From assembly GCA_000004695.1 (NCBI GenBank), contig CM000154.2, positions 4,736,001-4,800,000 on the forward strand: a stretch of DNA of 64,000 nt. Reading direction: 5' to 3'. Under the pieces are notes generated by a model that made no database searches, had not been told where the DNA came from, and saw only the letters and a program-made list of their open reading frames with translations. Position numbers and translations under genes: made by a program. This DNA comes from Dictyostelium discoideum (Eukaryota). This document shows positions 5,679-62,679 of this stretch, one piece after another; position 1 is the stretch's first letter; each line of letters begins with the position of its first letter.

Positions 5679-5684
5679 TAATTA

Positions 5685-5820
<136 letters not shown>

Positions 5821-13874: not shown

Positions 13875-16408
13875 TTACTTTGTTTGGTGATTTAAAATTG
13901 GGTTATTATTGTTATTTGTGTTGTTGTTATTATTATTATTAGTGTTATTATTATTTACACCATTTGTCTGAGCAGTTGAAGCAGCATAAATTTGATGAAC
14001 TCTCATATGTTCTTTCCACATTAAAGATTGATGTTCTTTTGAACAAAAGTAAGTGGCATAACCAGTTTTAGCACAATTATAACATTCCAACATTGATTCC
14101 TCACCACAATAACAACATGGACGTTGTGGTGGTTGAATATGTTTATATTTTTCCAATACTAATTCTCTAGCTCTTTGTTTATCTCTTTCAAATTGTTCTT
14201 GTTGTAATTGTTTATTAATTTGTAATTGTTGTTGTTGTTGCTGTTGTTGTTGTAATTGTAATTGTAATTGTAATTGGAAATTTTGATTACTACTATTATT
14301 TGAGATCGAATGATTTAAATTACCTGTAATAATTGATGCTGTTGTTGGTTGTTGTTGTTGTTGTTGCTGTATATTATTATTGTTGTTATTGTTATTATTA
14401 TTATTATTGTTGTTGTTGTTGTTCGCTATATTGTTATTATTATTATTGTTTGAATTTTGGAAAGATTGAAATTGTTGTTGTGATACTTGTTGATGATATT
14501 GTTGTTGTAATGATGACAAACTATTTGCAGATGGTTGTGAATAAATACTATTTTGTTGTGGTGGTTGTTGTTGGGTTGATGATGATGAGGAGGATGATGA
14601 AGATGAATACATTGATGGGAAAGAAGAAGTTGATGAAGAGGATGCAGAGGAAGAAGTAGATGCAGCTGCTGTACTGCTACTATTATTACCATTGCTTATA
14701 TTATTACTAAAAATGGATGCATTTGAAAATGGAGTTTGAAACATATTTAAATCTGTGCCAAATAAAGATGATACGCTATTACCTAGAATACTACTATTGT
14801 TGTTATTGTTATTGTTATTGTTTATATTTACAGAACTATTATCATTATCTAGGTAACTACTCCAACTTGGTGTCCAATTGAATGGATCACTTGAGTATGT
14901 ATTTACTTCCTTACTAAATAACATTGACGATGAGTTTGATGAGTTTGATGATGAGGTTGATGATGATGAGGTTGCTGATGATGATGATCCACTATTACTA
15001 TCCCAATTATTTGCAAATATATTATAATAATTTGTATTAACTGATGGTATTATATTTGAATTTTGTTGTTGTAATTGTTGTTGTTGTAATTGTTGTTGTT
15101 GTTGCTGTTGTAATTGTTGTTGTAATTGTTGTTGTTGTTGTAATTGTTGTAATTGCTGTTGTTGTAATTGTTGTTGTAATTGTTGTTGTTGTTGTAATTG
15201 TTGTTGTTGCAATTGTTGTAGTTGTAGTTGTTGCAATTGTTGTTGTGATTGTTGTGGTTGTTGTTGTTGTTGTTTTACTTTTGGAGAGTTTGGTATATTT
15301 GTATTTTGTGGTTTTTTTGGTGAAAGTGGAATAGTATTGTTGGCCAAATTATTTATATTATTTAAATTATTGGTGTTGATACCATTTGTATTATTTAAAT
15401 TACCATTGCTATTGTTACTATTATTGCTAGTGTTATTATTATTGTTATTATTGTTATTATTATTGTTATTGTTATTATTATTAATATTAATATTATTATT
15501 ATTATTATTATTATTAAGTGGTTTAGTTTGTATTATTGGAACAGTGGTATTACCAGATTTTGAAAGATTAGATTTGGCAATATTGGTAGATTTTGAAGGA
15601 GTTGCACCTAATGGAGGGAATTCATTACCAAGTGGTGGGAACTCATCTTCATAGTGTTCAGCAGGTTGTTGAGGTAATTGAGTAGCATTAATACCATTTA
15701 ATAAAGGAGAAGTATTACCTGCTACTGCTGCAGAAAATGGAATTGGTTGTGAAGATGATAAACTGGATTGTGTACTATTACCATTAGCAATTGGTATAGC
15801 TGGTGCTGATGTATGTAATGAAATTGGCATTTGATGTAATTGATGAGTTGATGTTGTTGATCCCAAAACTGGGGAAATTGGTGTTTGTGATTGTTGTTGT
15901 TGACTTTGTTGTGATTGTTGACTTTGTTGTTGTTGTGGTTGTTCATTTTGTTGTATTATATTTGATTGTAAAGTTGGTGATGGTGGTGAATGTACTTGTG
16001 GTTGGTTTGGTGGTGGTGGTGAAATTGATGGTAAAACTGATAATTTAGAATTTTGTTGGTTACTAGTTGTTGGATCTGGTTGAATTGATAATTTTACATC
16101 TTTTTTAGTTTTATCGTCAGCAAATGGTTTGCTATAAGATGTTTGAACAGACAGTTTTTTATTTGAAGATTTTGATTTTGAACCTGGTATTGACCATTGA
16201 TCATTATCATTAATTAAATTTGAATTTGTTGTTTCACACATTGAACATGTTGGCATTGTTATATCTTCGTTAATATATGTACATATATTACAACGCCATT
16301 GACCTGATTTCAATTCAACACCATCCTCACTAGTGAGACCATTTTCACTTAAAATACCATCATTATTATCTAAACCATTATTAATTTCTCCATCTTGTTG
16401 CTGTTGTA

Positions 16409-16534: not shown

Positions 16535-17917
16535 GCTGTTGTTGTTGTTGTTGTTGTTGTTGTAATTGTTGTTGTTGCTGTTGTTGTTGCAATTGTTGTT
16601 GTTGTTTAATTAATAAATTTTTTTGTTGTAAATTATATTTCAATTGTTGATTTATCCTATTGTTATAATCTTCAAAATAAGCTTCCCATAATGGTGAACC
16701 TAATTCAGTTAAATGTGAACCTAATTTCTCGAGTTTAACCAATAACCTATTTAAATGATATAATAGTCTCTCTCTATTATATTCACTGATCACTGGTTTA
16801 GTATCTTGTAAATGAGTTAAATGTGCCTCTGGTCCAACCGAGGAACCACGAGTATTTGTTAATTTCTCACAATGTGTTATGAATGGCATATCCTCAACAT
16901 AATCAATTGCTTCAATAACTTGTAAATGAAATCTAATAACTGTCTTTTGAGCACTTGTTAATTTTGATGCTATCTTTTCATCTAAAAATAATGAACCACT
17001 ACTATTATCTGATAAAATATTATTACTACTACTATTATTACTAATACTATTCTTTGCTGCTATTTTTAAATCTTTAAATTCACTTATACCTATTTTTTTT
17101 TTTAAAAAAAAAATAAAAAAAATAAAAAATAAAAATTAATAAATATTTTTTTTTTTTTTTTTTTTTTTAATTTATAATAAATAAATTTCTATTATTATAT
17201 ACATACTTGATTTTGCCTTTTGTAGTCTATCCTTAACATGTCTTAATTTGCAATGTTTTTCTAATAAATTAAATGCCTGTTCATCGGTTAATTCTTCATC
17301 TTCTTTTGGTAATAACATACTCCATTCATTCCAAATACATGTAATAACATCATCAATCTAATAATTTATTTATTTATACAATTTTAGAAATAAAATAAAA
17401 TAAAAAATTATTAGAAATGTATTTTTTTTTTTTTTTTTTCTTTTTTTTTTTTTAAAAAAAATTTTAATTTTTTACTTACATCCATTTCAACTAATTTACC
17501 CCTTCTTTTAGCTTGACAAGATCTATTTTTTAAATTTCTATCACCAAGTACAATTAAACAATCAGCTTTGGAACCAGTTATAATCTCTGCTAAATTTTCA
17601 GTTTTAATACTTTGATTATTATTTTCTTCAGTCTTTAAAAATACATCAATACCTTTCTCAAGGAATTGGTTTTGTACTTCCTTTGCAAATCTCATCACTC
17701 TTGGATCAGCGGCATACAATACCACCATTTGTAAGAATGGTCTTCTTCCAGCCATCCTACTTGGATTAACTCTACAACTATATGATATAAATTCTTCTGA
17801 ATCTTCAGATAATGATAAGTTACTTATATTTAAAAAATTATTATTATTATTATTGTTCGTATTTCCATTACTATTATTAACATTACTATTACTACTATTT
17901 AAAACTGGTGAAACTAA

Positions 17918-17959
<42 letters not shown>

Positions 17960-18406
17960 ATTATTATTATTATTAATATTATTAATATTAATATTATTAT
18001 TATTATTGTTATTATTATTATTATTATTCCCTGAATTATTCACAAAAGATGAAGAATTATTTAAAACGTTTGTAGAAGTATTATTATTATTAGACCCATT
18101 AGTATTATTGTTATTGTTATTTGTACTATTTAAAATTGGTGAAGTTGGAGCAGTTTTATTCTTTTCAGTTTGTATATTGGTATTATTTATTGTAGAGTTG
18201 TTTTCATTATTATTATTATTGTTATTATTATTATTATTATTGTTGTTATTATTATTATTTGAAGAGGAAGGTGTTTTTGCTGTATATGCTATAGTGGTTG
18301 ATGGAGTTGACCCACTACCATATGAATGTGAAAACCTGCATGAATCTCCTAATTTGCATGTACCTGATTTAAAATATTTACAAATAACTGGATATCTACC
18401 TGTCAT
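13875..18406 (-). CDS. Large low-complexity multi-zinc-finger protein: N-terminal CCCH finger, an anticodon-binding-like alpha/beta module, a central RanBP2-type finger, and a C-terminal MYND finger. Three exons: 18406-17480, 17357-17207, 17089-13875. 1431 aa.
   Basis: CCCH: CKYFKSGTCKLGDSCRFSH. RanBP2: WRCNICTYINEDITMPTCSMC. MYND: CCYCGEESMLECYNCAKTGYATYFCSKEHQSLMWKEHMRVH. Donors GTAAGT (17479) and GTATGT (17206); acceptors ttAG (17359-58) and atAG (17091-90). Phase consistent (0, then 1). PolyQ runs of more than 40 and polyN runs of more than 25. Confidence 0.65.
16396..16606. repeat. (CAA)n/(TTG)n coding trinucleotide repeat, about 70 units, encoding polyglutamine within the zinc-finger gene. 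Similar arrays at 14195-14425 and 15050-15290.
   Basis: Direct reading. The antisense frames give artefactual polyC/polyV/polyL ORFs in the ORF track. Confidence 0.9.
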
Positions 18407-21035: not shown

Positions 21036-25136
<4,101 letters not shown>

Positions 25137-25256
25137 TAAAAAATAATTGTAAATTATATATAATTACATGTAATTATATGTGTATATATAATATATAATT
25201 TTTTTTTTTTTTTAATAAAAAGGTATTTGTAATGGTACTATTTAGTAATTTTATTT

Positions 25257-25287
<31 letters not shown>

Positions 25288-25326
25288 CAGATATTTTTGA
25301 TGGTTTTTAATAATTAATCAAAAAAT

Positions 25327-27212
25327 TGATTAATAACAAGTTGGTGTATATTTACAACAACCTACACCTTTACATTCAAATAAACGAATTGTTTCATTTT
25401 CAAGGTATGTACAACTCTTACCTGTTTTTTCACAATCAAGATCACGACATACTAAACAACCTTCTTCTAAATCATATGGTGGTGGATCAGCTGGTAATGG
25501 AGTTGGGGTTGGTCTTGGTGGGACAGTGGTTGGTGATGGAGTTGGAGTTGTAGTTGGAGTTGGGGTAACGGTTGGAGTAACGGTTGGTGTAACAGTTGGG
25601 GTAACAGTTGGAGTAACAGTTGGGGTAACAGTTGGAGTTACAGATGGAGTTGGAGTACAAATGTATGTTGGAATACATACACCATTTTCACAATATGAAA
25701 AAATGCATGGATCAGTGCTTGTACAATTAATAGGGTTTATTAAACAAGGTGGGTTCCCTCTTGGATTACATTCCCTTGGGAAGCATAAATCATTTGTAAT
25801 ACAAGTATCTACAGCATTACATGCATCACAATTATCAAACTTATCATAATAACAACCTATAGCTGGATCACAATGATCAGTGGTACATGGATCATTATCA
25901 TTACAATTTTTTGGAATTGCAAGACAACCAAAACCTATTTCACAACTTTTAAAAAAAAAAACAAATTAATTAATTAATTTTACTTTTTTTTTTCCAAATA
26001 ATTTAAAAAACTATTATTGAAAATAATTAAAAATATATTTTGAATAAATACATACGATTCTACTAAACATTTGTCATTAGTAGTGTTACATATCTTATCA
26101 ACAAATTCACATTGGTAATTATTATCTGGACCACATGCTTGTATTAAACATGGGTTAATAGGACTTTCGGAACATTGGTTAACCATACAACACTAAATTT
26201 TTAAAAATTAAATTTTGATTAATAAAAACTGCTTTATTTAAAAAAAATAAAAAATAAACTTACAGTATCATTATGACCATCACAACTGTATATATAATAA
26301 AAAAACCAATGTATTAAAAGATCTGATCAACTATTTTATTAATAATTTTATTATTATTATGTGGGGGAAAAAAATACTTACACTCCACAAGCATCATAGG
26401 CTGAACATGTGAAATTTAAATTGGTAATAATATTTAAAGTTGATTGTGATGTATGTCTTTCACAATAAAAGAAATCCCATGGATAACTTTGGCCAACTGT
26501 CAAACCTAAATCATCCATATTAACAGTTCTTGATGCTGCTGTATGAATACCACCAATATCAATTCTTAAAACATCATCAAAGAATACCCATACATCATCA
26601 TCTCCTGAAAATGTAAAATATTCACCACCATGATATGTAAAACTAAAATATAGCAAATTATTAATAAAAAATTATTAATAAAAAATTATTAAATTATTAT
26701 TATTTTAAAACTTACCTATAATGAATTTTCATACAAAAATGGAAATTATGACCCAAATAATGTGGTTCATTTGGATAAACTGTTGAATTATCGAAACCAT
26801 TACCATCAATTGGAAAGAATGAATTGCTTTGGTAGGCATATGTGCTATCACCAACCCTTGTTAAAGTGAGATCATATGGAATTGGGACGTTAACTTTTTA
26901 AATAATAATAATAATGAAATTAAAATTAACAATTTGTTTTTTAAAATTTAGTAAAAAAAAATATTAATTATTATATATACATACCACCTGGAACACTATG
27001 GAACCAAGAATAAAATGTCGATTGGTTGTGAACTACGATTCTACCATTTTCAGTTACTGGAGAATCACCACAGCAATAAACTGGTGTACCATCAGCACCC
27101 AAGTCTGGTTGAACAATACCTTCAACTACACCATTATAATAAGTTTCAATTTCGAAATCAGCTATAATTTATTTAAATAATTTAAAAATTAAAATATTTT
27201 TTAATTTCATTA

Positions 27213-27244
<32 letters not shown>

Positions 27245-27296
27245 AAAAAAAAATATAATAAAAATAATTTTAAAATTATATATATATGACTTACGA

Positions 27297-27329
<33 letters not shown>

Positions 27330-27646
27330 TATTAATAAATATATTAAAAAATAAAAAAATTTGAATTAGTATTGAATATTTCTATTTTTTTTTTTTTTTA
27401 AAATAAAAAAAATAATCTAAAAAATACTTACAATAGGAGATTCATCATAAATTGTTGCTGAAAGAACAATAGAGTCTGGTTGACCTTGTGAGAAACCCTC
27501 TTTAAATGTAAAAAATTTAATAGTTTATATGTTAATATATTTTTTATTTTTTATTATATAATAATTTTATTAAGTTTAATTTTATTTTATTTACCCTTAT
27601 ATAAATTACTTAATAAAAGTATTAACAACAAATATGAATATTTCAT
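25327..27646 (-). CDS. Secreted PA14-domain protein of the Dictyostelium psi (prespore-inducing-factor-like) family, with C-terminal Dicty CTDC cysteine-rich repeats and a (TPTV)n linker. About 8 exons.
   Basis: Signal peptide [17 protein letters not shown] at 27646. PA14 core over exons at ~27165-26980, ~26893-26705 and 26656-26378 ([14 protein letters not shown]…, …[40 protein letters not shown]). Repeated C-x-D-x-C…G-C modules ([31 protein letters not shown]). PT-rich linker [12 protein letters not shown]…. Stop at ~25327 (…CCKYTPTCY*). Donors GTAAGT/GTATGT, recurring every 60-200 bp. The exact ends of two small exons are uncertain. Confidence 0.6.
25556..25650. repeat. 12-bp tandem repeat (GGAGTAACAGTT-like), about 8 copies, encoding the (TPTV)n linker of the psi-family gene on the opposite strand
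   Basis: Direct reading: gtaacggttggagtaacggttggtgtaacagttggggtaacagttgg…. Confidence 0.85.
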
Positions 27647-28544
27647 ATTGTTTTTTTTTTTTGTTTTTTTATAATAATTAATAATATTATTAATTGTTCT
27701 TTTTTTTTTTTTTTTTTTTTTATAATTAAAAATCAATTTATTTCTTTTTTTAATAATGTTTTCCAATTTTTAAAAAATGTTTTCCAATTTTTAAATATTC
27801 ATATAATGTTACTATAAATATATAAATAATATTGATTTTTATTGTGTTTTATTTATTAAATGTTCATATGAAACAAATAAATTATTATTTTTTTTTTTTT
27901 GTTTTTTTTTTTTTTATTTGTTTGTTTTTTTTTTTTTTTTTTGTTTTTATTAAATATCTTTTTATATATAATTATTTCTCATTTCAATAAAAAATCATAC
28001 CCCCACTTTTGTTTTACAAATTATAACTATAAAAATTAATATTTAACATCCACTACAAAAAAAAAAAGTAAATAAAAGGGGTTTCATATGGACTGTCACT
28101 GCTTTCAAAAATTTAAATTAATTTGTAAAAAATAATAATTTATAATAAACTTATTTTTTTATTGTAATTGTTTTTTAAAAAAAAATAAAAAATAAAAAAT
28201 AAAAAATAAAAATAATAATAAAATAATAAAGTAAAGTTAATTGGAGAAAAAAAAAAATATATATTAATAAAATTGAAAAATATAGTAAAATTAAAATTAT
28301 TATGAAAATAATTAGAGCTTTAGTTTAATTATAACTTTATGATTTATTTATTCTCACATTAACATATTTTATTATATTTATTTTTTTTTTTTATTTTTAA
28401 TTTTTTTTTTTTTGGTTTTTTTTTTTTTTTTTTAAAATTTCATTTTTTTTATTTTTTTTTTTATTTTTTTTATTTTTTTATTTTTTTTTTTTTTTTTTTT
28501 TGATCTTCTCAATATTAATATTATAAATATCATAATAAACAACA

Positions 28545-29952
28545 ATGATTGGAAGATTAAATTTAATTACCAAATCAAATTTATTTAAAAATGTATTAAA
28601 AACTATTATTTTAATATATATGAATTTTTAAAAAAGATTAAAAACCTTCATATTAATATTTTTTTCCTTTTTTTTTCACAAAAAAAAATAAAATAAAATA
28701 AAATAAAATAAAATAAAATTTTATATAAACAAAAATTTTAAATGAAAATGAATCATTAATATTTTAAATGGAAATAAAACAAAAATTATTAAAAAAATAA
28801 AAAAAAATTAAAAAAAAAAAAAAAATTAAAATTTTTAGGTTAATAATTTAAATAATAAAAATTATTATTCAACTTGTTTAGTTATAGCAGAACATGATAA
28901 TAATCAATTATTAAATTCAACATTGAATACAATTACAGCAGCATCAAAATTAGGAGTCACAAATATATCAGTATTAGTAGCAGGTTCAAAATGTGGACCA
29001 GTTGCAGACTCAGTATCAAAAGTTAGTGGTGTAACCAACGTAGTTTGCGTTGACCATCCAACATTAGAACACTCATTAGCAGAGACAATCACCCCAATCA
29101 TTGTTAAATTACAATCATCATCGTCAAAAGAGGGTGACGAAATTACACACATCTTCACACCAGCATCCAATTTTGGTAAAAACTTCTTACCAAGAGTCGC
29201 AGCATTATTAAACGTTTCACAAATTAGCGAGATTACAAAAGTAAAAGACGCTGAAACTTTCCAAAGACCAATCTACGCTGGCAATGCAATCGCCACCGTT
29301 AAATCAACTGATAAATGTAAAGTTGGTACTGTTCGTACAACAGCTTTCGATAAAGCCCCAACAAGCGGTGGTTCGGCAAAGGTCGTCTCTGCCAACGATT
29401 GGGCTGTACCATTAATTGAGAAAGCAATCTCTGAAACAAACATTAAATGGGAATCTTCTGAAGTTAAAAAATCTGAACGTCCAGAATTAACAAGTGCTCG
29501 TGTTGTAGTATCTGGTGGTAGAGGTATGAAAAATGGTGAAAACTTTAAAATGTTAGAAGAATTAGCTGATACTTTAGGTGGTGCAGGTAAGAATTGCCTT
29601 TTATTTATCAACTCAAATCCAATTATAATTTCCTTACAAACTTTTTTTTTTTTTTTTTTTATTATTACTATAAAATTTAGTTGGTGCATCAAGAGCAGCT
29701 GTTGATTCAGGTTTTGTTTCAAATGATTTACAAGTTGGTCAAACTGGTAAGATTGTAGCACCAGAATTATATATTGCTGTTGGTATTAGTGGTGCTATTC
29801 AACATTTAGCTGGTATGAAAGATAGTAAAGTAATTGTTGCTATCAATAAAGATCCAGAAGCACCAATCTTTCAAGTTGCTGATGTTGGTTTAGTTGGTGA
29901 TTTATTCAATGAAGTTCCAAAATTAACCGAATCAATTAAAAAATCAAAATAA
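28545..29952 (+). CDS. etfa: Electron transfer flavoprotein subunit alpha, mitochondrial. Three exons: 28545-28592, 28839-29586, 29681-29952.
   Basis: Exon 1 [16 protein letters not shown] is a basic presequence. Exon 2 reads [29 protein letters not shown]… and [28 protein letters not shown]. Exon 3 reads [76 protein letters not shown], the ETF-alpha FAD-binding signature. Donor GTAAGA at 29587; acceptor ttAG at 29679-80; phase 1 verified. The exon1/exon2 junction (GTATTA…ttAG) is less certain. Confidence 0.8.
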
Positions 29953-30527
29953 ATTATAAAAAATAAAATAAAATAAAATAAAATAATTATTAAATAATTA
30001 TTAAATAATAATAATAATATTGGATTTTGGCTCAGCTCTTCATTTAATTCAAGAATTATTTTTTAAGATGAAAAAAAAAAAAAAAAAAAAATCTGTTTAA
30101 AAAATCTAACCCATAAATTTTTTTTTTTTTATTTTAAAATTTTTTTTTTTTTTTTTTTTTATTTTAAAATTTTTTTTTTTTTATTTTTTTTATAAAAAAA
30201 GTTTTATTTATTTTTAATTTTATTTTATTTTTTTATTTTTTTTTTTTAAAAAATTGAGAAAAAATAGCGTACAAAAAGAAAAAATTTTTTTTTTTAATTT
30301 CTTTTTTTTTTTTCACCACCACTTTAAAAAGGCACAAAAACAAATAAAATTTAAATTAAAATAAAACATAAAAATAAAATTTAAACAATAGTGTAATTAA
30401 TTAAAATATCGCTATTGTTGTTGATTTCTTTTCTATTTTAAAATATCGTGTTCTAAATTTATAATTTTTTTGTTGTATTTATAAGAACACTTTTTTTTTT
30501 CTTTTTTTAAAAAGCAAAACCAAAAAA

Positions 30528-30563
<36 letters not shown>

Positions 30564-31055
30564 ATCTATTTTAGTGTTCATTATTTATATATTTAATTGT
30601 GTGTGTTTTTTTAATAACAGTTTTTATAAATAAATAAAATTTTTAAAAATAAAAAAAAAAAAAAATAAATAAAATATAATCATATTTTTTTTTTTTCTTT
30701 TCTAAAAACTTTATAAAAACAATTTGTGTGTCATTTTTTTTTTCTTTATTTTTATATATACATATTAATATTTATTTGAAAAAACAAATTTAAAATAAAA
30801 AAAAAATTTATAATCCAATTTAATTTCAACCTATTTATGTAAAGATTAAATTTAATATTATTATTATTATTATTATTATTATTTTTAGAAAAAGAATATT
30901 AAATAATTAATAAATACTTTTTTTTTTTTTTTTTTAAATTGTTAATATAATTAAATTATGAATTAGTTAAGAAGTTTTTTTTTTTTTTTTTTTCCAAACC
31001 CCGAACCGAATCAATCCAATTTTTTTTTTAATAATTAATAATAATAATTAATAAA

Positions 31056-32033
31056 ATGTTATCAGCTGCTCCTAAACCAACTCCACAAAATAAAAAACAA
31101 TCATTTTATAATAAATTATGGTGTATGGTTTGTAGAATTCAAGATCCAGATATTATTGAAGATTATGCAAAAGGAGATTTAATTTGTAGAGGATGTGGTG
31201 TTGTTGTTGGTGATCGTATTGTAGATGAACATTCCGAATGGAGAACCTTTTCCAATAGTGAAAGTACAGGAGCCGATCCAAATCGTGTTGGTGGTCCAAT
31301 TAATCCTTTACTTCGTGATTCAGCATTGTCTACAACAGTTGGTAAGGGTTCAAAAGATTCAGGTACATTAACTCGTCTTCAAAATAAGAGTGCTTTGGGT
31401 ACTGGTGATCGTAATTTGTTAGCAGCTTTCAAAGAGATTGGTCGTATGGCCGATCATATGAACCTTCCACAAACAGTTCAAGATCGTGCCAATGAATTGT
31501 TTAGATTTATGGATGATAAGAAATCCACCAAAGGTAGATCTGTCGATGGTATGGTCGCCGCCGCTTTATATATAGCCTGTCGTCAAGAGCATCTCTCACG
31601 TACCTTTAAGGAGATTGCTGCGTTGACCAATGTTCCAAAGAAAGAGATTAGCAGATGTTATAAAATTATGAAAGAAACCTTTGCTAGTGTATTGAATCTT
31701 CAAACCATCTCCTCTGAAGATTTCACAAGTCGTTTCTGTTCAACTCTCAAATTACCAAATGACGTAAAGAAAGGCGCTGAACACGTCAGTAAAATGGCCA
31801 TGGATATGGGTATTGTTGCAGGTAAATCACCAATCTCTGTAACTGCTGCCTCAATCTATATGGTCTCTCAATTATCACCCGAGAAGAGAACTCAAAAACA
31901 AATCGCTGATGTTAGTGGTGTATCTGAGGTAACCATTAGAAATGCTTACAAAGATCTTTACGCTAAAAGAGATCAATTAATTCCTTCCGACTCTCCTTAT
32001 TTCAGTCAAGTTCAATATTTACCAACAAATTAA
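31056..32033 (+). CDS. gtf2b: Transcription initiation factor IIB (TFIIB). Single exon, 325 aa.
   Basis: N-terminal zinc ribbon CMVC…CRGC. B-finger/linker. Two cyclin-like repeats (RSVDGMVAAALYIACRQEHLSRTFKEIAALTNVPKKEISRCYK and KSPISVTAASIYMVSQLSPEKRTQKQIADVSGVSEVTIRNAYKDL). Confidence 0.9.
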   Translation: MLSAAPKPTPQNKKQSFYNKLWCMVCRIQDPDIIEDYAKGDLICRGCGVVVGDRIVDEHSEWRTFSNSESTGADPNRVGGPINPLLRDSALSTTVGKGSKDSGTLTRLQNKSALGTGDRNLLAAFKEIGRMADHMNLPQTVQDRANELFRFMDDKKSTKGRSVDGMVAAALYIACRQEHLSRTFKEIAALTNVPKKEISRCYKIMKETFASVLNLQTISSEDFTSRFCSTLKLPNDVKKGAEHVSKMAMDMGIVAGKSPISVTAASIYMVSQLSPEKRTQKQIADVSGVSEVTIRNAYKDLYAKRDQLIPSDSPYFSQVQYLPTN

Positions 32034-32336
32034 AAAAAAAAAAATAATCAAAAAAAAAAAATGAACATGAAAAAGAAAAAAAAGGATATACAAATAATAT
32101 GTTTTGTTCACTCAAAATAAATAATTAATAATAATAATATAAAAGTTTTTTTTTTTTTTTTTAAAACAATAATTTTTTTTTCTATACAAAATTTAAAATA
32201 AAACAAATATACATTTACATGCTTTCTTTTTTTTTAAAAAAAAAAAAAAAAAAATCTAAACGATTATGTTTTTTTTGTAATTGATAGTTTATTTTTATTA
32301 TTGGAAATTGGGATTATTATTATATTTCATGATTCA

Positions 32337-33935
32337 AGTGGTTCAATATCATCATATAATATTTTAACATAAATGTTTATTGTTAATTTATCATCATCAC
32401 TTAACCAACCATTCTTTTTATTAATTAATTTTGAAGCTAAAAATTTAGACCAACCTTTTCTCTCAATTTCTTCAAAAACTAAAATAATTTATATCAGTTA
32501 TTTTTTTAAATAAAAATAATTTAAATAATTAATATTAAAAATAATATTTACCTTCTAGACCTTTTCTTGTAATGGATTTTGATTTATCCAAAAGATTAAC
32601 CAATTCAAGAGTGAATTCTAATTTGTTAGGGTCTTCGTTATTATTATGTAAAAATAAAGAGAGGTGATCTTTTCCAGTTAGACTGCCATTTGGATAGATA
32701 GATATTACAAATTCACGAGACACAATATCGAATGATGGAGAATATATGTATTCAGGGTGCGGGGTATTCTCAACAAGATTTGAATAGTTTGAAATGATCC
32801 ATTTATTCGTATATCCTTGAGAAGTTAATTTCCATGAATTAATAAAATCATTTTTATTAAAATAATTATCATCGATTTCAGTAATTAATGATGAAAGTTC
32901 ATCATTCTTTCTTTGAAGTTCACTACAAGTAATCTTTGATTTTTCAATTTCTTTGAGAAGTAATTCTTGAATTTTCATTGATTGATCTAATGTTGATGAT
33001 AGTTTATCAATTAATTTGCCCATAAATAATTGATGATTTACATTCTCTAAATGACGCTGTAACTCTGATCTCTTCATTTCAACTTTGCAACCATATTCAT
33101 AATATTTACATTGTATTGTAGAATTATTACAATCATTCTCAATATGTGATTTTATTTGATCTCTTTCAAAAAAATTTAAACAACCTTGTGGACAACCTAT
33201 TACAAATTTTGGGCACTCATCATAATGATTTTCTAATTGCACTTGAATGATACCATCACAAGCACAATATTCACATTTAACTAATTTGAAACCACATTGA
33301 TTTTCATGTTCTTTCAATGAATTTAATCTTAAAACTCTATCACATCCGATATGTGAACATTTTACAAATTTAAATTTACAATTTTGTATATGTCTATCTA
33401 ATTGATCTACATTTATTATTTCTTTACAACCATTCTCTTCATCTTTAATTAATTTTCTTTTTTCATTTTCTTCGTCTTTATTTTCTTCATTTTCATTTTC
33501 ATTTTCTTCATCCTCATCTTTATCTTCATCATCTTCTCCATTTTCTTCATCTTCATTTTCATCTTCATCATCTTCATTTTCTTCATCTTCATTTTCTTCA
33601 TCTTCATTTTCTTGATTGGCACCATCAATAAAATAATCCAAGTGGAATGAATAAATACAATTACATTCTTTTTTAGAAAAATTTTGTTCAATTACTAAAC
33701 ATCTTGATAAATTTTTAAATGATTTTACTTTACATCTACAAATCATACATTCTTGTTTAATTTCTAATGATTTCTCCCAACATTCTTGGCATGCATAATG
33801 ACCAGAACTACATTGATAAATTGATTTTTTATAAATTAATTCAAAACAAATTGGACATGTATATTTATTTTTCTTTTGTAATGATTCTTTATTTAATAAA
33901 ACATCATTGATTGTAAATTTTGAATATATTGACAT
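32337..33935 (-). CDS. TRAF-like protein: RING finger, acidic D/E repeat, TRAF-type zinc fingers, coiled coil, C-terminal MATH domain. Two exons: 33935-32562 and 32479-32337.
   Basis: RING: [42 protein letters not shown]. Repeated C-x…H-x…C-x…C TRAF fingers ([55 protein letters not shown]). MATH domain [12 protein letters not shown]…[16 protein letters not shown]…LSLFLHNNN. The last exon after donor GTAAAT (32561) and acceptor ttAG (32481-80) encodes [42 protein letters not shown]. Confidence 0.75.
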
Positions 33936-34250
33936 TCCGTTATAAAATAAAATATAAAATTAAAAAAAAAAAATAATAAAATAAAAAAACAAATAAAATT
34001 GAAAATTAAAAAAATATTTAATTAATAATATTAATAATAAAAAAAAAAAAAAAAAAAAGGTGTGTTAAAAAATAATTTTTTTTTTTTTTTTAAAAAATAA
34101 TACTAAAAATAGCTCCAAAAATAAAAAAAAAAAATTAAAATTTTAAGCGAACAAAAAAAAGTTATTTTAAGTAGTATCTTTATTTCATTAATTTTTTTTA
34201 TTTTTATTATTTTTTCAAAATAAATATAAAAAAAATAAATAAATAAATAA

Positions 34251-34330
<80 letters not shown>

Positions 34331-34339
34331 TGTTAATTT

Positions 34340-34900
34340 ATTATCAATACTGAACCAACCACTCTTTTTATCATGAATTTCATTAATGCCACATTTATTT
34401 TCATGTTCTTCTAATGAATTTAATCTTAAACTATTTCACATCCAATATGTAAACATTTTACAAATTTAAATTTACAATTTTGTATATGTGTATCTAATTG
34501 ATCTACATTTATTATTTCTTTACAACCATTCTCTTTATATTTAATTAATTTTCTTTTTTCATTTTCTTTATTCTCTTCATTTTTTTCATCTTCATTTTCT
34601 TCTTGATTTGAACCATCAATACAATAATCCAAGTAGAATGAGTACATACAAAAACATTGTTTTTTACCAAAATCTTGTTCCATTACTAAACATCTTGATA
34701 AATCTTTAAATGATTTTACTTCTGATTTACAAATCATACATTCTTGTTTATTTTTTAAAGACATTCTTTACATGCATAATGACCAGATCTGCAATGATAA
34801 AAAAAAATATTCAAAACACTTTGGACATGTATATTTTTTTTTCTTTTGAATTAATTCTTGATTAAATAAAACTTGATTGATTGTAAATTTTGAATTAGCT
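34340..34900 (-). pseudogene. Decayed TRAF-like paralog fragment (RING/acidic/TRAF-finger region with frameshifts and a truncated 5' end)
   Basis: ORF 34426-34764 (…[28 protein letters not shown]…[17 protein letters not shown]) is collinear with residues ~60-200 of the intact gene. The upstream RING part is out of frame (…[13 protein letters not shown]… is only recoverable with shifts). A poly-A tract abuts at 34260-34325. Confidence 0.5.
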
Positions 34901-35024
34901 GGCATTCGTTATAAAATAAATATATATATTAAAAAAATAAAAATTTAATAAAAATTAAAAAAATTATAAAATATAAAAAATTCCAAGTTAACTTAAAAAT
35001 TTTATTGAAAAATATTTGAGGATT

Positions 35025-36318
35025 CTATAGGGGGTTATTATTATTATTATTTAATTTTTTAATAAAAATTTTAATTGTTAATTTATTATCAGTACTCAAC
35101 CAACCAAACTTTTTATCTTGGAATTCACCAAAGCCGACAGACCTGTGGAGGGTTCTGTTTGGTCCTTTAAATTTGATTGATTTCGACCTATCCAAATAAT
35201 TAACTATGGTAAAAATATATTTTAAATTAACCGATGGTTTTGTTTTAAATCCAATACAAGTTGGAGAAATTGAAAATGCACCTTTGGAAAAAAAAAAGTT
35301 GAAATTCTTCATTTTCAAAGTTAAATGGTTGAGAAAAAATTTTACCATTTGGTATGTTTGAAAAAATCCATTTGTTTTTGTATGTAGGAGAATAAGTGCT
35401 ATCCATTTTAGTGATAAATGAAGAAAGATTATTATTTTTTATTTGAAGTTCATCAATCTTTTTAACTAGCTCATCTTGGGTTTTATTTGATTCATATAAT
35501 GTTGATAATTTTGAAGATAGTTTTTCAATTAACAGACCTATGAAAAATTGATGATTTACATTCTCTTAATGGTTTAGTAACTCTGATCTTTCCATATAAA
35601 CTTTACAACCATATTCATAGTATTTACATGGTATTATTGAATAATTACAATCATACTCTGAATGATTTTATTTGATCTCTTTCAACCATAATTGAACAAC
35701 CTTGTGGACAGTCAATTGGAAATTTTGGGTATATATCATGATGATTCTCTAATTCCATTTGAATGATATCATCACAAGCACAATACTCACATTTAACTAA
35801 TTTGTAATCACATTTATTTTCATGTTCTTCTAATGAATTTAATCTTAAAACTATATCACATCCATCATGTGAACATTTTTCAAATTTAAATATACAATTT
35901 TCTATATGTATATCTAATTGATCTACATTTATTATTTCTCTACAACCATTCTCTTCATCTTTTACAAATATTCTTTTTTCATTTTCTTCATTTTCATATT
36001 CTTGATTGGCATCAATAAAATAATCAAAGTATGAGTAAATACAACAACATTCTTTTTTAGCAAAATTTTTTCAATTACTAAACATCTTGATAAATCTTTA
36101 AATGAATTCACTTCCGATCTACAAATCATACATTCTTGTTTTGTTTCTAATGATTTCTCCCAACATTCTCTACATGCATAATGACCAGATCTACATTGAT
36201 AAACTGATTTTTTATAAAAATATTCAAAACAAATTGGACATGAATATTTATTTTTCTTTTGTAATGATTCTTGATTTAATAAAACATTATTGATTGTAAA
36301 TTTTGAATTTATTGACAT
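35025..36318 (-). pseudogene. TRAF-like pseudogene (full-length relic, copy A of the duplicated unit). RING N-terminus intact, middle disrupted by frameshifts/stops, MATH-like C-terminus in a separate frame.
   Basis: 35962-36318 reads [83 protein letters not shown], then the frame is lost. 35025-35348 encodes a MATH-like tail. The intervening TRAF-finger region is only readable across several frame breaks. Confidence 0.55.
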
Positions 36319-36651
36319 TCTTTGTTATAAAATTATATATATATATTAAAATATATATATTAAAAAAAAAAATATAAAATAATAAAAAAAATTAAAAAAT
36401 AAATAAAATTGAAAAAAATAATAATAATAAAAAAAAAAGTGAGTGTGTTAATTTTTTACAAATAAATTTGCTATTATTTTTTTATTTAAAAAAAAAAAAA
36501 AAAAAGCTATTTTTATCACCAAAAAGAAAAAAAAAATTAAAATTTTAAGCGGTGGAAAAAAATAAAAAAAGTTATTTTTAGTTGTATCTTTTATTTCACA
36601 ATAAAAAATAATTAAAAAAAAAAACTAATAATTAATAAAATAAATAATTGG

Positions 36652-36693
<42 letters not shown>

Positions 36694-36783
36694 AAAATTA
36701 AGTTCTAGTAACATTTAAATCAAATTTTTTAATAATCTAAAAATGTTTATAAAAGATAGAATGATTAAAAATTTATTTGGTAT

Positions 36784-36815
<32 letters not shown>

Positions 36816-36841
36816 CATTGTAAATGTTATTAGAATTTTAT

Positions 36842-46775
<9,934 letters not shown>

Positions 46776-47614
46776 TTTTTTTATTTATTTTTAAAATTAA
46801 TATGAAACTTTTTATTGATAATTTTTAAGTTTTTGTTTAAAATTAAAATTAAAACAAACAGCGGGTGGAAAAAATAATTAAATAAAAAATTAATATATAA
46901 AAAAAAAAATAATTAAATAAAAAATTAATATATAAAAAAAAAAAAAAAAACTGAATTGGGGGTTCTATTTTTGTTAAACTTTTAATCTAACAAAACTCAA
47001 AAATATTGGTTAGAAAAAGCAAAACAAATTTAATTATTATTATCTTTGTCTTTGGTTATTATTTTTTATTTTATTTTACTATGTTAATGGAAAAAGGGTT
47101 ATTTTGTGTTTGTCAATTTGCAAAAAAAAAAAAATGTTTTGGTGTGTGTTTTTTTTACCCCCTTAAATATGACCAAAATTAATAAAATTTAATTTATTTT
47201 TATTGTACACCCAAATTCCACAAATACAATTTAATATTTACCTATACATCATGTTAATAAAACTTGGTGTGAGACCTTTTCTGGAAAAAAATTCAAATTT
47301 TTACGGAAAATGGAAAATGGAATATTTTCTAGAAAAATTTAAAAATAATGGAAAATAATGGAAAATTAAATTATATAAAAAAGGGTATAGTTTAAATAAA
47401 AAAAAAAATAAAGTTTTAATTTTATTTAATTTGAAAAATTATTTTTTCGAAATAACTTAATTTATTCCGGGATAACTCGATCTTTTTTAAAATATGCTGA
47501 GTTAATTATAATTAATTCAATTATCCACTGATAGATCCAATACTAAAAAATAGAAAATATTAGAATTTTTAAATTTTATTAATTCGGGGTTATTTTTTTT
47601 TTTAAAAAATAATT

Positions 47615-47794
47615 GTACCATGCCAAAATTACCATATTAATTTCAGCAGCCATATTAATTTTGGCATGGGACTTATGTCTGCCAAAATTACCGTATTAAT
47701 TTCAGCCTAAAATAGTTGGTCTGTGCATGCCAAAATTAATATGGCTGCTGAAATTAATATGGTAATTCTAGCAGACATAAGTCCCATGCCAAAA
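47615..47794. mobile_element. Solo ~180-bp palindromic MITE-like element, the same repeat family as the terminal inverted repeats of the 60383-62197 insertion
   Basis: It begins gtaccatgccaaaattaccatattaatttcagcagccatattaattttggcatgggac, a 57-nt hairpin unit. This is followed by a second palindrome ttatgtctgc…gcagacataa and a restart of the unit (gtcccatgccaaaa). It matches the reverse complement of 60383-60563 nearly base for base. Confidence 0.5.
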
Positions 47795-49019
47795 ATAATT
47801 ATAATAATTATTAGAAAATAGGATATTTTATAAAAAAATAAGATTTTTTATTAAAAATGTAACCTTTATTATTTTTTAAATACAATATATTAAAAAAAAA
47901 GATAAATAATAATAAAAAAAAAATAATACAATATATTAAAAATTGTACCATTATATAATTTTTAACATATTTTATTAAAATATAATAAATACTAAAAAAT
48001 GAGATAATATATAAGAAGGTTATAAATTTTATTAATTATGGTTTAAGTAATCCCTAAAAAATAAGATAAAAAATAATAAATTTTATAAAAAAAAAAAAAA
48101 ATATATAAAATTTCTTTTTATTTTTTCATTTTTTTTTCATCTTTTTTTTTTTCCAAAGTAAGTAAATTTTCATTATTGTTTGAATAAAATCAGTAAACTA
48201 ATTATTAAATTAGAATAAATAAAATTGATGAAACAACTTAAAAAAAAAAAAAAAATAATAAAAAAAAAAAAATAAAAAAAATTTAGAAAAATAATTTGGC
48301 TTTTTTGGCACAACAATGTCCAATAAATTTAGTTAGTAAAAATTCAGACAGATTAATATTGCCATTATGTAAAGGTATGATATCAAATAATAATTAAATC
48401 AAAATAGCTTTAATACTAATTATTTCTTTTTTTTAAAAAATTAAATAGATGTCTATTTAATTTTTTCAAGACCAGAGAAATCCAATGTAGCCTCATCTGA
48501 ATGCATTGCGAATACCCATTGTATCCTGTAATACCAATTAATTCCAATGTGGCTTCATCTGTTGCAAATCGATTTTCATTTATTAAATCTTATAATAATC
48601 TATTAAAATTTCTTTTTTTTTAACATATTTTAAAATTATTAATTAATTTAATAAATTTTATTATTAGTATTATTTTTTGATAATATTAAAATAATAATAC
48701 TAATAATAAAATTTATTAAAAATTAATAATATTTTTTGATTAATTTTTATAATAAATAAGGAATAGATTATATAAAAAAAATAAAAATTCTTATATTTTA
48801 ATATTTTTTATTTAAATATTTATTGTACACCCATTATTTTTTATCATTTTATTATAGTTTTTAATAATATTATTAAATTATAGTTTTATGTTTTAAAAAT
48901 GAGAAATTACAATAGTAAAATTTCCCACAATATGGTAAATCAATAAATTTTTTATAATTTAATGACAAATTAATATTCAATTTTATTTAAATAATATTAA
49001 ATTTTATCTTTTGGTAGGC

Positions 49020-49759
49020 TTGAAAAAACCCATTTGTTTTTTTATGTGGGCGAATAAGTACTATCCATTTTAGTGATAAATGATGATAGATTATCATTTT
49101 TTATTTGAAGTTCATCAATCTTTTTAACTAGCTCATCTTGGGTTTTATTTGATTCAGATAATGTTGATAATTTTATCATGATGATTCTCTAATTCCATTT
49201 GAATGATATCATCACAAGCACAATATTCACATTTAACTAATTTGTAATCACATTTATTTTCATGTTCTTCTAATGAATTTAATCTTAAAACTATATCGCA
49301 TCAATCATGTGAACATTTTACAAATTTAAATTAACAATTTTGTATATGTGTATCTAATCGATCTACATTTATTATTTCTCTACAACCAGTCTCTTCATCT
49401 TTTATTAATATTCTTTTTTCATTTTCTTCATTTTCATATTTTTGATTGGCATCAATAAAATAATCAAAGTATGAGTAAATACAACAACATTCTTTTTTAG
49501 CAAAATTTTGTTCAATTACTAAACATCTTGATAAATCTTTATATGAATTCACTTCTGATCTACAAATCATACATTCTTGTTTTGTTTCTAATGATTTCTC
49601 CCAACATTCTCTACATGCATAATGACCAGATCTACATTGATAAACTGATTTTTTATAAAAATATTCAAAACAAATTGGACATGAATATTTATTTTTCTTT
49701 TGTAATGATTCTTGATTTAATAAAACATTATTGATTGTAAATTTTGAATTTATTGACAT
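49020..49759 (-). pseudogene. TRAF-like pseudogene (copy B of the duplicated unit): RING N-terminus retained, ~550-bp internal deletion relative to copy A, MATH region residual
   Basis: 49331-49759 reads [22 protein letters not shown]…[36 protein letters not shown]…, near-identical to 35962-36318. 49020-49330 aligns to 35335-35520 and 35700-35790 of copy A, with the intervening segment missing. Confidence 0.5.
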
Positions 49760-50014
49760 TTTTTGTTATAAAATTATATATATATATTAAAATATATATA
49801 TTAAAAAAAAAATATAAAATAATAAAAAAAAATAAAAAATAAATAAAATTGAAAAAAATAATAATAATAAAAAAAAAAGTGAGTGTGTTAATTTTGTTAT
49901 TATTTTTTTTATTTAAAAAAAAAAAAAAAAAAAGTTATTTTTAGTCGTATCTTTTATTTCACAATAAAAAATAATTAAAAAAAAAAACTAATAATTAATA
50001 AAATAAGTAATTTG

Positions 50015-50051
<37 letters not shown>

Positions 50052-50201
50052 AAATTTAATTTCTAGTAACATTTAAATCAAATTTTTTAATAATCTAAAA
50101 ATGTATTTAAAAGATAGAATGATTATTAAAAATTTATTTGGTATTTTAAAAATTTTTTTTTTTTTTTTTTTTTTCCATTGTAAATGTTATTAAAATTTTA
50201 T

Positions 50202-60077
<9,876 letters not shown>

Positions 60078-60946
60078 TTTTTTTATTTATTTTTAAAATT
60101 AATATGAAACTTTTTATTGATAATTTTTAAGTTTTTGTTTAAAATTAAAATTAAAACAAACAGCAGGTGGATAAAAAAAAATAATTAAAAAATTAATAAT
60201 ATAACTAATTAATAAAAAAAAAAAAAAAAACTGAATTGGGGGTTCTATTTTTGTTAAACTTTTAATCTAACAAAACTCAAAAATATTGGTTAGAAAAAGC
60301 AAAACAAATTTAATTATTATTATCTTTGTCTTTGGTTATTATTTTTTTTTTATTTTACTATGTTGTGGAAAAAGGGTTATTTGTCCCATGCCAAAATTAA
60401 TATGGCTGCTGAAATTAATATGGTAATTTTGGCATGGGACTTATGTCTGCTAGAATTACCACATTAATTTCAGCAGCCATATTAATTTTGGCATGCACAG
60501 ACCAACTATTTTAGGCTGAAATTAATATGGCTGCCGAAATTAATATGGTAATTTTGGGCATAGAAAAATAAAAAAAAAACTCAAAGTCATTTAATTAATA
60601 ATCATCTCAAATATAAAAGAATTAAAAATAATAAAAAAAAACTCATGGGATTAATTACAGTAACAATACTGATGACAAGAATAATTATAAAATAAAAAAA
60701 AAAAAAAAATCTTTTTTTATCTTTTTATTTTTATTTCTTATTTATTTTCATGTGTTCAAAAAAAGTGGTGGTTTAAAACAATTTATTTAATTTTAAACTG
60801 TATGATTGTTTAAACAATTTCGAAATAAGTTTCTTTAAAGAAATTCTGTATTTCTTTTTTATTTTATTTTATTTCATTTCATTCTAATTTTTTTTTTTTT
60901 TTTTTTTTTATTTTTTTATTTTTTTTTTTTTTTTTGTATATTTAAG

Positions 60947-61100
<154 letters not shown>

Positions 61101-61284
61101 TACTATTATTTAATTGACCGAAGGGATATCTTTTACTTTTTTTTTATATATAATTGTTCGAAACTTTAAAAAATAAAATAAAAAAAAAAAAATTAAAAAA
61201 AAAAATATAAAAAAAAAATTAAAAAAATTAAAAAGTATTTTTTTTTTTTATTTTTTTATTTTTCCACCCGAAGATGTCGCTTTT

Positions 61285-61686
61285 TTGGAATTTAAAGATG
61301 TTGAATTCAATCAAAGTGATGAATTTGGTGTATTATTTAACGAAGTTACTATTGATAAAAATGATTTGAAGTACAAAGTAAATGTTGAATTTAGAGAGGC
61401 GGAGACAAGTAAAAATAAATTGCAAAGGGATATCGAAATAACCAAAAGAAAATCAACAGATGACCTAGTTGAAAAAGCAATCGAGCACTCTACCACCGAA
61501 GTTAGATCAACACATGAAGCTGCAACAACTTCCAATAATGGTGGAATCACAACTCAATCAAACAAAAACAAAACGGGTAAAAAAAGAGCTAATCAATTAC
61601 AATCTGATGCTGATTTTACCAAAAGATTTTCAAACGAAACTTCATCTGTTAGTAACAAAAGAGAAAGTAGAAGAGTCAATAATTAA
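61285..61686 (+). other. Internal ORF of the TIR element, 133 codons, no in-frame ATG (begins at TTG); unassigned
   Basis: Only stop-free stretch inside the element. Composition is less AT-biased than its surroundings. Charged, K/E/T/S-rich product …EFKDVEFNQSDEFGVLFNEVTIDKNDLKYKVNVEFREAETSKNKLQRDIEITKRK…. No recognisable domain. Confidence 0.25.
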
Positions 61687-62579
61687 AATAAAAAATTAAA
61701 AAAAAAAAATTATTTTAATTTTTTTTTTTTTTTTTTTTTTTTATTTTTAATTTTTTTTTTTATTTTTAATTTTTTTTTTTGTGAGCCGTGGACATAAATG
61801 AATAATAAAAAAATATATCAACTAAAAAAAAAAGAAATGAAAATAAATTATAAAATTAATAATAAAAATAAAAAGATAAAAATAAATAAAAGATATAAAT
61901 AAAATAATATGAAAATTTTTTTTTTTTTTTTTTTTANTATTATAATTATTATAATAAAAATAATAATAATAATAATTTTAGTACTAAAATTTTGTTTATA
62001 TTTGAGATGATTATTAATTAAATGACTTTGACTTTTTTTTTTTTTCTATGCCAAAATTACCATATTAATTTTGGCAGCTATGTACATGCTGAAATTAATA
62101 TGGCTGCTGAAATTAATACGGTAATTTTGGCAGACATAAGTCCCATGCCAAAATTAATATAGCTGCTGAAATTAATATGGTAATTTTGGCATGGGACAGT
62201 TATTTTGTGTTTGTCAATTTACAAAAAAAAAAAAAATGTTTTGGTGTGTGTTTTTTTACCCCCTTAAATATTGACCAAAATTAATAAAATTTAATTTATT
62301 TTTATTGTACACCCAAATTCCACAAATACAATTTAATATTTACCTATACATTAATAAAACTTTTATAAGCTGGCCATTTTTCAAGCGAAAACGATGATGG
62401 AGGGGTAGAAAATGATAATTTACTTAAATATTCTATTCAAAATAAAGAGGATAGAGAAGAAGAAGAGTTGAGTGTGTATTATTTTTCATTTTACATAAAT
62501 ATGTTAAAGTATTGGCCATTAGAAAAAAAAAAAGTTAAAAAATGAAAAAAGTTAAAAAAAAAAAAAGTGAAAATATATT

Positions 62580-62679
62580 NNNNNNNNNNNNNNNNNNNNN
62601 NNNNNNNNNNNNNNNNNNNNNNNNNNNNNNNNNNNNNNNNNNNNNNNNNNNNNNNNNNNNNNNNNNNNNNNNNNNNNNN
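62580..62679. other. Assembly gap (100 N). Single N at 61937 and NN at 5984-5985.
   Basis: Direct reading of n characters. A 100-N run is the conventional unknown-size gap. Confidence 0.95.

Follow-up and report, generated by a model that had tools for sequence, protein, structure and literature searches.

The closest described relatives of the genes considered here are the Dictyostelium proteins TrafA-E, five members that have been studied together and described as expressed in vegetative cells; experiments have identified TrafE (DDB_G0290971), which is encoded in the same region of chromosome 5, as an E3 ligase that is recruited to damaged endolysosomes and to mycobacterial vacuoles (PMC10181826). 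More than 40 TRAF-like genes are known from Dictyostelium discoideum, 16 of which encode the full RING/zinc-finger/TRAF arrangement, and DDB_G0290931, named 'DdTRAFl', is among these 16 (Dunn et al. 2018, PMC5758549). This gene, which is not one of the five members mentioned above, lies together with three decayed paralogs in a 64,000-nucleotide (nt) stretch of chromosome 5 of D. discoideum AX4. This stretch, of about 20% GC, was placed on the chromosome by exact protein matches to database entries; it is referred to below as the window, and all coordinates are given in it. The four copies are designated c1 (DDB_G0290931), c2, c3 and c4.

The product of c1 has the RING, zf-TRAF, (predicted) coiled-coil and MATH architecture found in TrafA-E but, unlike those proteins as described, it carries a disordered acidic insert of about 55 residues, (DEENE)n, between the RING and the zinc fingers; c2, c3 and c4, again unlike TrafA-E, are non-functional copies. 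The same domain order is present in metazoan TRAF2, TRAF3, TRAF5 and TRAF6. To our knowledge, the TNF-receptor pathway is absent from amoebae. The RING and zinc-finger region of c1 has its best PDB matches in TRAF6 and TRAF4, whereas its C-terminal domain is nearest to the MATH domains of SPOP and USP7 and not to TRAF-C. Identity to the metazoan proteins is only 20-26%, and orthology is not assignable (PMC5758549).

The arrangement of the locus also resembles that of the vertebrate MHC, KIR and TRIM5/TRIM22 clusters and the plant NLR clusters, where pseudogenes stand among tandem intact genes, lineages differ in copy number and integrity, conversion or unequal crossover generates chimeras, and a high ratio of nonsynonymous to synonymous substitution (dN/dS) is combined with open reading frames (ORFs) that are kept open. 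Unlike those clusters, the TRAF-like array is interleaved with polyketide synthase (PKS) genes, and a role in defence is suggested only by TrafE. It is very likely, in our assessment, that the window contains a segment of the AX4 chromosome 5 TRAF-like array in which c1 is the working gene and c2, c3 and c4 are dead tandem copies, within a family that evolves by birth and death accompanied by gene conversion. The gene, its family and tandem birth and death with some conversion have already been described; a literature search for the relic gene identifiers or for the evolution of the TRAF cluster returned only the naming table of Dunn 2018. What is added here is a corrected anatomy of the locus, the recognition that several database 'proteins' are pseudogene fragments, and the finding that the array is unusually fast-evolving and that the integrity of its members depends on the strain.

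One intact gene and three decayed copies

Exactly four TRAF-like copies were detected in the window when c1 and 76 family proteins were used as tblastn queries. A preliminary description of this DNA, made from the sequence alone, had proposed one intact gene and three decayed paralogs, which is borne out by the tblastn matches and by the mapped lesions, although its strand detail is wrong, as every one of the four copies is on the minus strand. Spliced c1 (33935..32327) has one intron and encodes 511 amino acids, and its product is the database protein XP_635487/Q54FD5, 'TNF receptor-associated factor family protein DDB_G0290931'. The single 3' intron and the Glu/Asp repeat that had been predicted for this gene are both real (Table 1). 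However, its coding sequence does not end at 32337, as had been proposed, but ten bases further on according to splice reconstruction, and the ORF beginning MKMKK (33449..33691), which had been considered antisense, is on the gene's own minus strand in the +1 frame. The acidic repeat varies in length among paralogs and strains: the three relics have a shorter one or none, and that of the orthologs is different.

The relic c3 was correctly anticipated to be full length but disrupted. It aligns end to end with intact proteins and contains four lesions only: a deletion of 1 nt at 36069, a deletion of 2 nt at ~35664, a TAA codon at 35568, and a frameshift in a 10-nt homopolymer at 35288-35297 (A10 on the plus strand, T10 in the orientation of the gene). 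In blastx comparisons, it can be followed throughout intact proteins of 422-427 amino acids from other strains (P0046 and P0047) at about 71% amino acid identity, in frames 1/3/1/2. The 3' part of c3 matches c1 weakly, and decay was considered as the cause of this and rejected. Two C-terminal types exist in the TRAF-like family. Type A, represented by c1, is a canonical MATH domain that is recognised by Pfam, and type B, found in c3, c2 and the T2 and T3 genes of other strains (vide infra), is about 20-40 residues shorter, is seldom recognised by Pfam and lacks the c1 intron. Since c3 is of type B and c1 of type A, the weak match reflects subfamily divergence. The two types are homologous (hhalign profile-profile probability 99.8%, E 1.4e-29), and a comparison of the type-B C-terminal profile with the PDB by sequence gave no match. 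Most likely, c3 is the recently inactivated counterpart of T3, a member with a shortened MATH domain.

The second relic, c2, had been described as a 5'-truncated, frameshifted fragment. The truncation does not hold: the ATG (34905) and about 100 nt of 5' flank are retained while a stretch of 693 nt is missing at ~34390, and c2 is therefore internally deleted, with the first TRAF zinc finger fused to the last MATH strand ('...DKKSGWFSIDNKLTIN'). The frameshifts do exist, as comparison with the intact T2 gene of another strain maps three small frame-breaking deletions, of 11 nt (~34802, codons 33-38), 10 nt (~34761, codon 52) and 1 nt (~34430, codon ~201-206). Two frameshifts wreck the RING, and a poly(T)/poly(A) run stands where the final ~15 codons would be. 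A very long A-run (34217-34325, with about 80 pure A) separates c1 from c2 and takes the place of the c2 3' end. This run is about 55 nt shorter in a second, AX4-like assembly (L001), and it is therefore a length-unstable homopolymer. We regard c2 as the putative decayed counterpart of the array member T2, which is intact in other strains.

The remaining relic, c4, is a duplicate of c3. The proposed connection of these two copies with a PKS duplication is supported by self-blastn, in which 35337-47265 matches 48999-62362; c3 and c4 are physically tied to the duplication because they form the leftmost part of both units. The fourth copy had been placed at 49020-49759 with an internal deletion. 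The deletion is present, with a length of 221 nt (equivalent to c3 35513-35733, with the junction at 49174/49175), and the copy ends at 48999. Further lesions are a TAA codon at 49333 and a TGA codon at 49303, and the 3' end is cut at the left edge of the duplicated block. Because this edge (35337 / 48999) falls inside the MATH region, c4 probably had no complete 3' end from birth, having been truncated by the duplication breakpoint. Homology between the spacer at 47266-48998 and 62363-64000, sought in order to fix the tandem junction, consists of low-complexity matches only. A block of about 12 kb, with most of c3 and a PKS gene, would have been duplicated to give c4, and the two relics would have drifted neutrally thereafter.

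The RING had been described as conserved almost perfectly in the relics. This is true of c3 compared with c4 only, which show no substitution in the first 200 nt; relative to c1 the protein identity is about 80%, and the RING of c2 is destroyed. Special conservation of the RING in c3 and c4 was considered and rejected, as their 98% identity is unexceptional within a duplicated block whose copies are 88-100% identical in 300-nt windows (MAFFT profile). The best-conserved stretch across the copies is the first TRAF zinc finger (~90% nt identity), not the RING.

Table 1. Positions of the TRAF-like copies, their parts and the associated duplication units in the window
Feature	Position	Strand	Description and basis
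c1 exon 1	32552..33935	-	codons 1-461 and first base of codon 462; ORF/splice reconstruction, exact match to XP_635487/Q54FD5
c1 intron	32479..32551	-	73 nt, GTAAAT...TTTTAG, 95% AT; sole c1 intron
c1 exon 2	32327..32478	-	last 50 codons and TGA stop; end of MATH domain; spliced product equals database protein
Acidic (DEENE)n repeat of c1	33462..33613	-	15-nt unit, ~9.7 copies; TRF
c1 5' flank (promoter region)	33936..34300	-	aligns with 36319-36697 and 49760-49933
c2 pseudogene, T2-like	34330..34905	-	ATG retained; alignment to c1 and T2
c3 pseudogene	35025..36318	-	full length, type-B C-terminus, no intron; alignment and blastx
c4 pseudogene	48999..49759	-	duplicate of c3; alignment, self-comparison
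Tandem duplication unit 1	35337..47265	.	5' three-quarters of c3, first PKS gene (~36770-46775) and its upstream region; self-blastn, MAFFT
Tandem duplication unit 2	48999..62362	.	c4, pks39 and 1.8-kb insertion at 60382-62199; self-blastn, MAFFT

The PKS genes in the two units are two in number, with long ORFs at 37451-44971 and 50799-58256. The gene pks39 is DDB_G0290943 (PMC10755179), and the name pks38 is inferred for the first gene from gene order. The identity between the PKS paralogs (36770-46775 versus 50130-60200) is a mosaic of 88-100% in 300-nt windows, reaching 99-100% in the N-terminal ketosynthase (KS) region (45131-46611), which suggests ongoing gene conversion between them. The insertion of about 1.8 kb that is present only in unit 2 has terminal inverted repeats (60382-60751 versus 62198-61876), with arms at 60419-60499 and 62081-62161 that are 89% complementary, and a solo copy of the insertion arm, of about 190 nt, is found at 47606-47799. 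It looks like a foldback or terminal inverted repeat transposon-like element. Self-comparison of the window is dominated by low-complexity trinucleotide tracts (5660-5925, 15346-15537, 17827-18260, 22790-22975, 55276-55551 and 60850-61117) with 77-97% mutual identity, which are typical Dictyostelium Asn/Gln-rich coding repeats. The upstream neighbour of the TRAF-like copies is TFIIB, at 31056-32033. One Logan contig from SRR24091725 (L002, 1585 nt) contains a TFIIB identical to that of the window, followed 47 nt on by a Usp-domain ORF on the same strand in place of the TRAF gene; either a chimera in the assembly of transcripts or another genomic arrangement may account for this contig.

Pseudogene status of the relics

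Mapping by alignment of the copies, as the preliminary description had recommended, places frameshifts, stop codons or deletions in every relic. The three are genuine pseudogenes, with lesions that are not removable by splicing, and they are unprocessed duplicates, because 5' flank and tandem position are retained.

A first alternative, which we regard as quite improbable, is that the leftover ORFs (the 142-aa RING-only ORF of c4, the 118-aa ORF of c3 and the 112-aa ORF of c2) are truncated proteins that still function, for instance as RING-only regulators or dominant negatives. All C3HC4 ligands are kept in the RING ORFs of c3 and c4, and that of c4 passes the Pfam RING cut-offs. The two copies do not differ in their first 200 nt, and the promoter region of the family has been copied and conserved in the 5' flanks of the ORFs. 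In addition, two of these ORFs are listed as proteins in public databases, that of c4 (49331-49759) as the GenBank 'hypothetical protein DDB_G0290941' and that of c2 (34426-34764) as the 'hypothetical protein DDB_G0290933'. However, the substitutions that separate c3 and c4 are unbiased over codon positions (5/6/4) with two nonsense changes among them, the ORFs of the two copies end differently at points fixed by random lesions, and in the c2 ORF the first four ligands of the RING are missing and one half of a zinc finger is present. The 98% identity of the 5' parts of c3 and c4 is equalled or exceeded elsewhere in the duplicated block, non-coding DNA included, which points to a conversion tract or recency and not to selection at the protein level. 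The relic ORF fragments occur in genome-derived records only. No exact carrier of their products was found in Logan or other non-NCBI contigs, a result which is uninformative, as the same is true of c1.

A second possibility, which is less probable again and which the preliminary description had itself named as the outcome that would make the copies genes, is that the relics are real multi-exon genes whose introns bridge the frameshifts. Automatic gene calls of this kind exist, as genes of 336 aa for c3 and of 170 aa for c4 (P0007) are annotated in a 2025 assembly (GCA_054883475.1; L001 13915-15208), and an exhaustive search yielded 85 GT-AG combinations that produce the 336-aa c3 ORF. This ORF is forced only by three to five GT-AG 'introns', such as 36083-35959, 35656-35563 and 35345-35282, and the c4 model uses a pseudo-intron at 49383-49291 that is 76% AT with the donor GTAGAG. 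The 'introns' needed are 74-79% AT, like exons, whereas the real intron and intergenic DNA are 94-95% AT, and their donors are poor (GTTTAG, GTATGA, GTAGAG). They lie wholly in what is coding sequence in c1 and its relatives, so that they would delete zinc-ligand and MATH residues, and intact family members have no introns at those positions. Each frameshift of the relics falls inside a continuous coding exon of c1 and the intact relatives, and successive tblastn matches in different frames abut or overlap without an intron spacer. When intron-like segments were defined as GTA...(T/A)AG of 45-300 nt with at least 88% AT, exactly one was present in the four copies, the c1 intron; the scan of composition and splice sites found none in c2, c3 or c4. 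Plausible introns thus rescue no relic.

It is scarcely credible that the lesions are sequencing or assembly errors in an AT-rich, repeat-rich region and that the copies are really intact. Two c3 frameshifts do lie where errors are common, one in a 10-nt homopolymer and one in an A-rich stretch. However, c1, c2 and c3 are 100% identical in the second assembly, GCA_054883475.1, even though the length of the nearby poly(A) differs, so that the lesions cannot be put down to errors in one assembly only, and deletions of 693, 221, 11 and 10 nt together with three nonsense substitutions are atypical of sequencing errors.

Selection, mosaicism and comparison between strains

Values of dN/dS were calculated by the method of Nei and Gojobori (NG86). 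TFIIB gives 0.04 between AX4 and other strains (with a proportion of synonymous differences, pS, of 0.07-0.09), c1 against its orthologs 0.67-0.95, T3 against T3 0.92, T2 against T2 0.65, and the relics 0.5-1.35. Because intact members also score 0.65-0.95, the ratio cannot separate living from dead copies; it was rejected as a discriminator and a stop-codon expectation test was used instead, based on the fact that about 7.5% of random single-base changes in family codons create a stop. No stop is present in the intact pairs, against an expectation of 6-13 (P from 1.5e-6 to 0.0025). The surviving family members change their amino acids at near the neutral rate, yet their ORFs are held open by clear selection. 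On the c3 branch, if c3 and T3 are orthologous as the test assumes, there is 1 stop where 6.5 would be expected had the branch been neutral throughout (P=0.011), and this deficit indicates that the death of c3 is recent. The relics c3 and c4 have no disabling lesion in common, and the indels which they share relative to c1 are all multiples of 3. In their readable part, they differ by 15 substitutions, distributed over codon positions as 5/6/4, and 2 of the 28 substitutions in total create stops, with 2.1 expected under neutrality, a result consistent with neutral drift after the duplication.

Among 5.8 billion proteins searched, 61 homologs were returned; the named ones are all from Dictyostelium, and many belong to dense local arrays carried by other strains and by sister species. 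Cluster members P0002-P0005 were rejected as unrelated short peptides brought together by clustering noise. Two assemblies labelled D. discoideum, ACTFIW and ACTFIR, are about 86% identical in nucleotide sequence to the window over 24853-34269. Their gene order is TFIIB, T1, T2, T3, a PKS remnant and further TRAF copies, with T1-T3 all intact. T1 (518 or 507 aa) has one intron and is the positional ortholog of c1, T2 (487 or 509 aa) has an acidic repeat and a type-B end, and T3 (427 or 422 aa) is of type B. As T2 and T3 are intact, working genes are found elsewhere at the positions of c2 and c3. The PKS of ACTFIW (L012 4376-6082) and ACTFIR (L013 7751-9493) is cut to a C-terminal remnant with the acyl carrier protein (ACP) and NAD_binding_4 domains only, alongside their intact T1-T3. 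The situation in AX4 is reversed, with PKS genes intact and TRAF copies dead.

Counting RING starts that lead into a full-length ORF gives 1/4 in AX4, 1/5 in FIY, 4/4 in FIW and 4/7 in FIR. The c1 ortholog of D. cf. discoideum (466 aa) has a transposon and broken TRAF copies after it. Just upstream of this ortholog is a transposon-like gene of 783 aa with DDE_Tnp_4 and Phage_integrase domains (L011 5795-8681), and a 38-aa RING-start relic (L011 9145-9261) lies between the two. Across strains c1 pairs with T1 and c3 with T3, and the mix of intact and broken members differs by lineage. As c3 is nearer to the T3 proteins (71% amino acid identity) than to c1, the duplicates are older than the lineage split.

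The 5' part of c1 does not follow this positional pairing. Its 5' flank shares 94-95% identity with the T2 flanks of two other strains and 81-89% with the T1 flanks. In a sliding-window comparison the first ~200 nt of c1 are also nearest to T2, and downstream of ~33730 the gene is nearest to T1, mostly at 87-96% and at 83% in the repeat window. With a T2-like flank and start and a T1-like remainder, c1 is a T2/T1 chimera, which appears to have arisen by gene conversion or recombination between neighbours, in one lineage.

The strain-specific mixes of intact and broken copies support the birth-and-death reading of the preliminary description. In its pure form, birth and death involves little or no homogenisation among paralogs; c1 has mosaic tracts, and the duplicated block has 88-100% patches. 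The model that fits combines birth and death with gene conversion and is not the pure one.

Proposed role of the intact gene and meaning of the array

The first exon of c1 codes for the RING (aa 27-66), the acidic insert, three TRAF-type zinc fingers, a predicted coiled-coil helix and most of the MATH domain. All RING ligands can be read from the sequence as C27-x2-C30-x11-C42-x3-H46-x2-C49-x2-C52-x10-C63-x2-C66, and the corresponding columns are invariant or nearly so in 34 homologs. Pfam detects zf-TRAF in three stretches (68.7 bits, cut-off 27), MATH_2 (58.9 bits, cut-off 32) and MATH (45 bits, cut-off 21.2), and the best PDB sequence matches are the TRAF6 RING-zinc finger, the TRAF4 zinc finger and SIAH1. 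An AlphaFold2 model with a mean predicted local distance difference test (pLDDT) score of 76 consists of the RING, the acidic insert (aa 103-159, pLDDT <50, predicted disordered), the zinc fingers, a single long helix of 57 residues (302-358, pLDDT ~83-93 in this monomer model) and a confident beta-sandwich (374-502). In Foldseek searches, the beta-sandwich matches the MATH domains of SPOP and USP7 with a target-normalised template modelling (TM) score of ~0.8 and E 2e-11.

By analogy with TRAF6 and TrafE, c1 is probably a RING-type E3 ubiquitin ligase that acts as an oligomer and selects its partners through the MATH domain. An E2 enzyme would be recruited by the RING, oligomerisation would depend on the three TRAF zinc fingers and the helix of about 55 residues, and binding of a partner or substrate would fall to the C-terminal MATH beta-sandwich.

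Several points weigh against the interpretation of the locus as one working ligase gene with dead tandem copies in a birth-and-death family. For c1 itself, the proposed E3 activity is inferred from homology to TrafE and TRAF6 and from domain architecture. Its Pfam RING scores are under the curated cut-offs (Sina_RING 26.1 versus 29.3 bits, zf-C3HC4_2 24.2 versus 27 bits), and the structural neighbours of its C-terminal domain are the SPOP and USP7 MATH domains rather than TRAF-C proper. With regard to the relics, the truncation of c4 may have come from a later deletion instead of the duplication breakpoint, and the second assembly may be from the same laboratory strain, in which case its identity excludes assembly error and is silent on the natural population. 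In the comparisons between strains, the NG86 values and the stop expectation, which is unweighted, both ignore the strong AT mutation bias, and the comparison strains are about 14% diverged in nucleotide sequence, which is much for one species. Finally, the equivalence of c2 with T2 and of c3 with T3 is derived from position, 5' flank similarity and C-terminal type, the gene bodies being nearly equally similar to T1, T2 and T3 (86-89%).

A bolder interpretation, to which we assign a small but appreciable likelihood, is that the TFIIB-proximal array is a fast-diversifying defence-type locus comparable to TRIM5 or NLR loci. In such a locus, MATH and RING modules would be reshuffled by conversion with dead copies as donors, integrity would be polymorphic among natural strains, and there would possibly be a trade-off with the PKS genes. 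The observations behind this suggestion are near-neutral dN/dS with ORFs that are kept, the mosaic structure of c1, and the reciprocal integrity of TRAF and PKS genes.

For the annotation of the D. discoideum genome, DDB_G0290933, DDB_G0290941 and the 336-aa and 170-aa models are pseudogene fragments and do not belong in any count of TRAF-like or RING proteins. For the biology of the family, the intact members beside TFIIB change their amino acids about 20 times faster than TFIIB does, with frames still open. As copy number and integrity differ between strains, results obtained with AX4 may not transfer to other isolates. The pattern is otherwise that of a textbook tandem family, and it provides context for work on innate defence in Dictyostelium.

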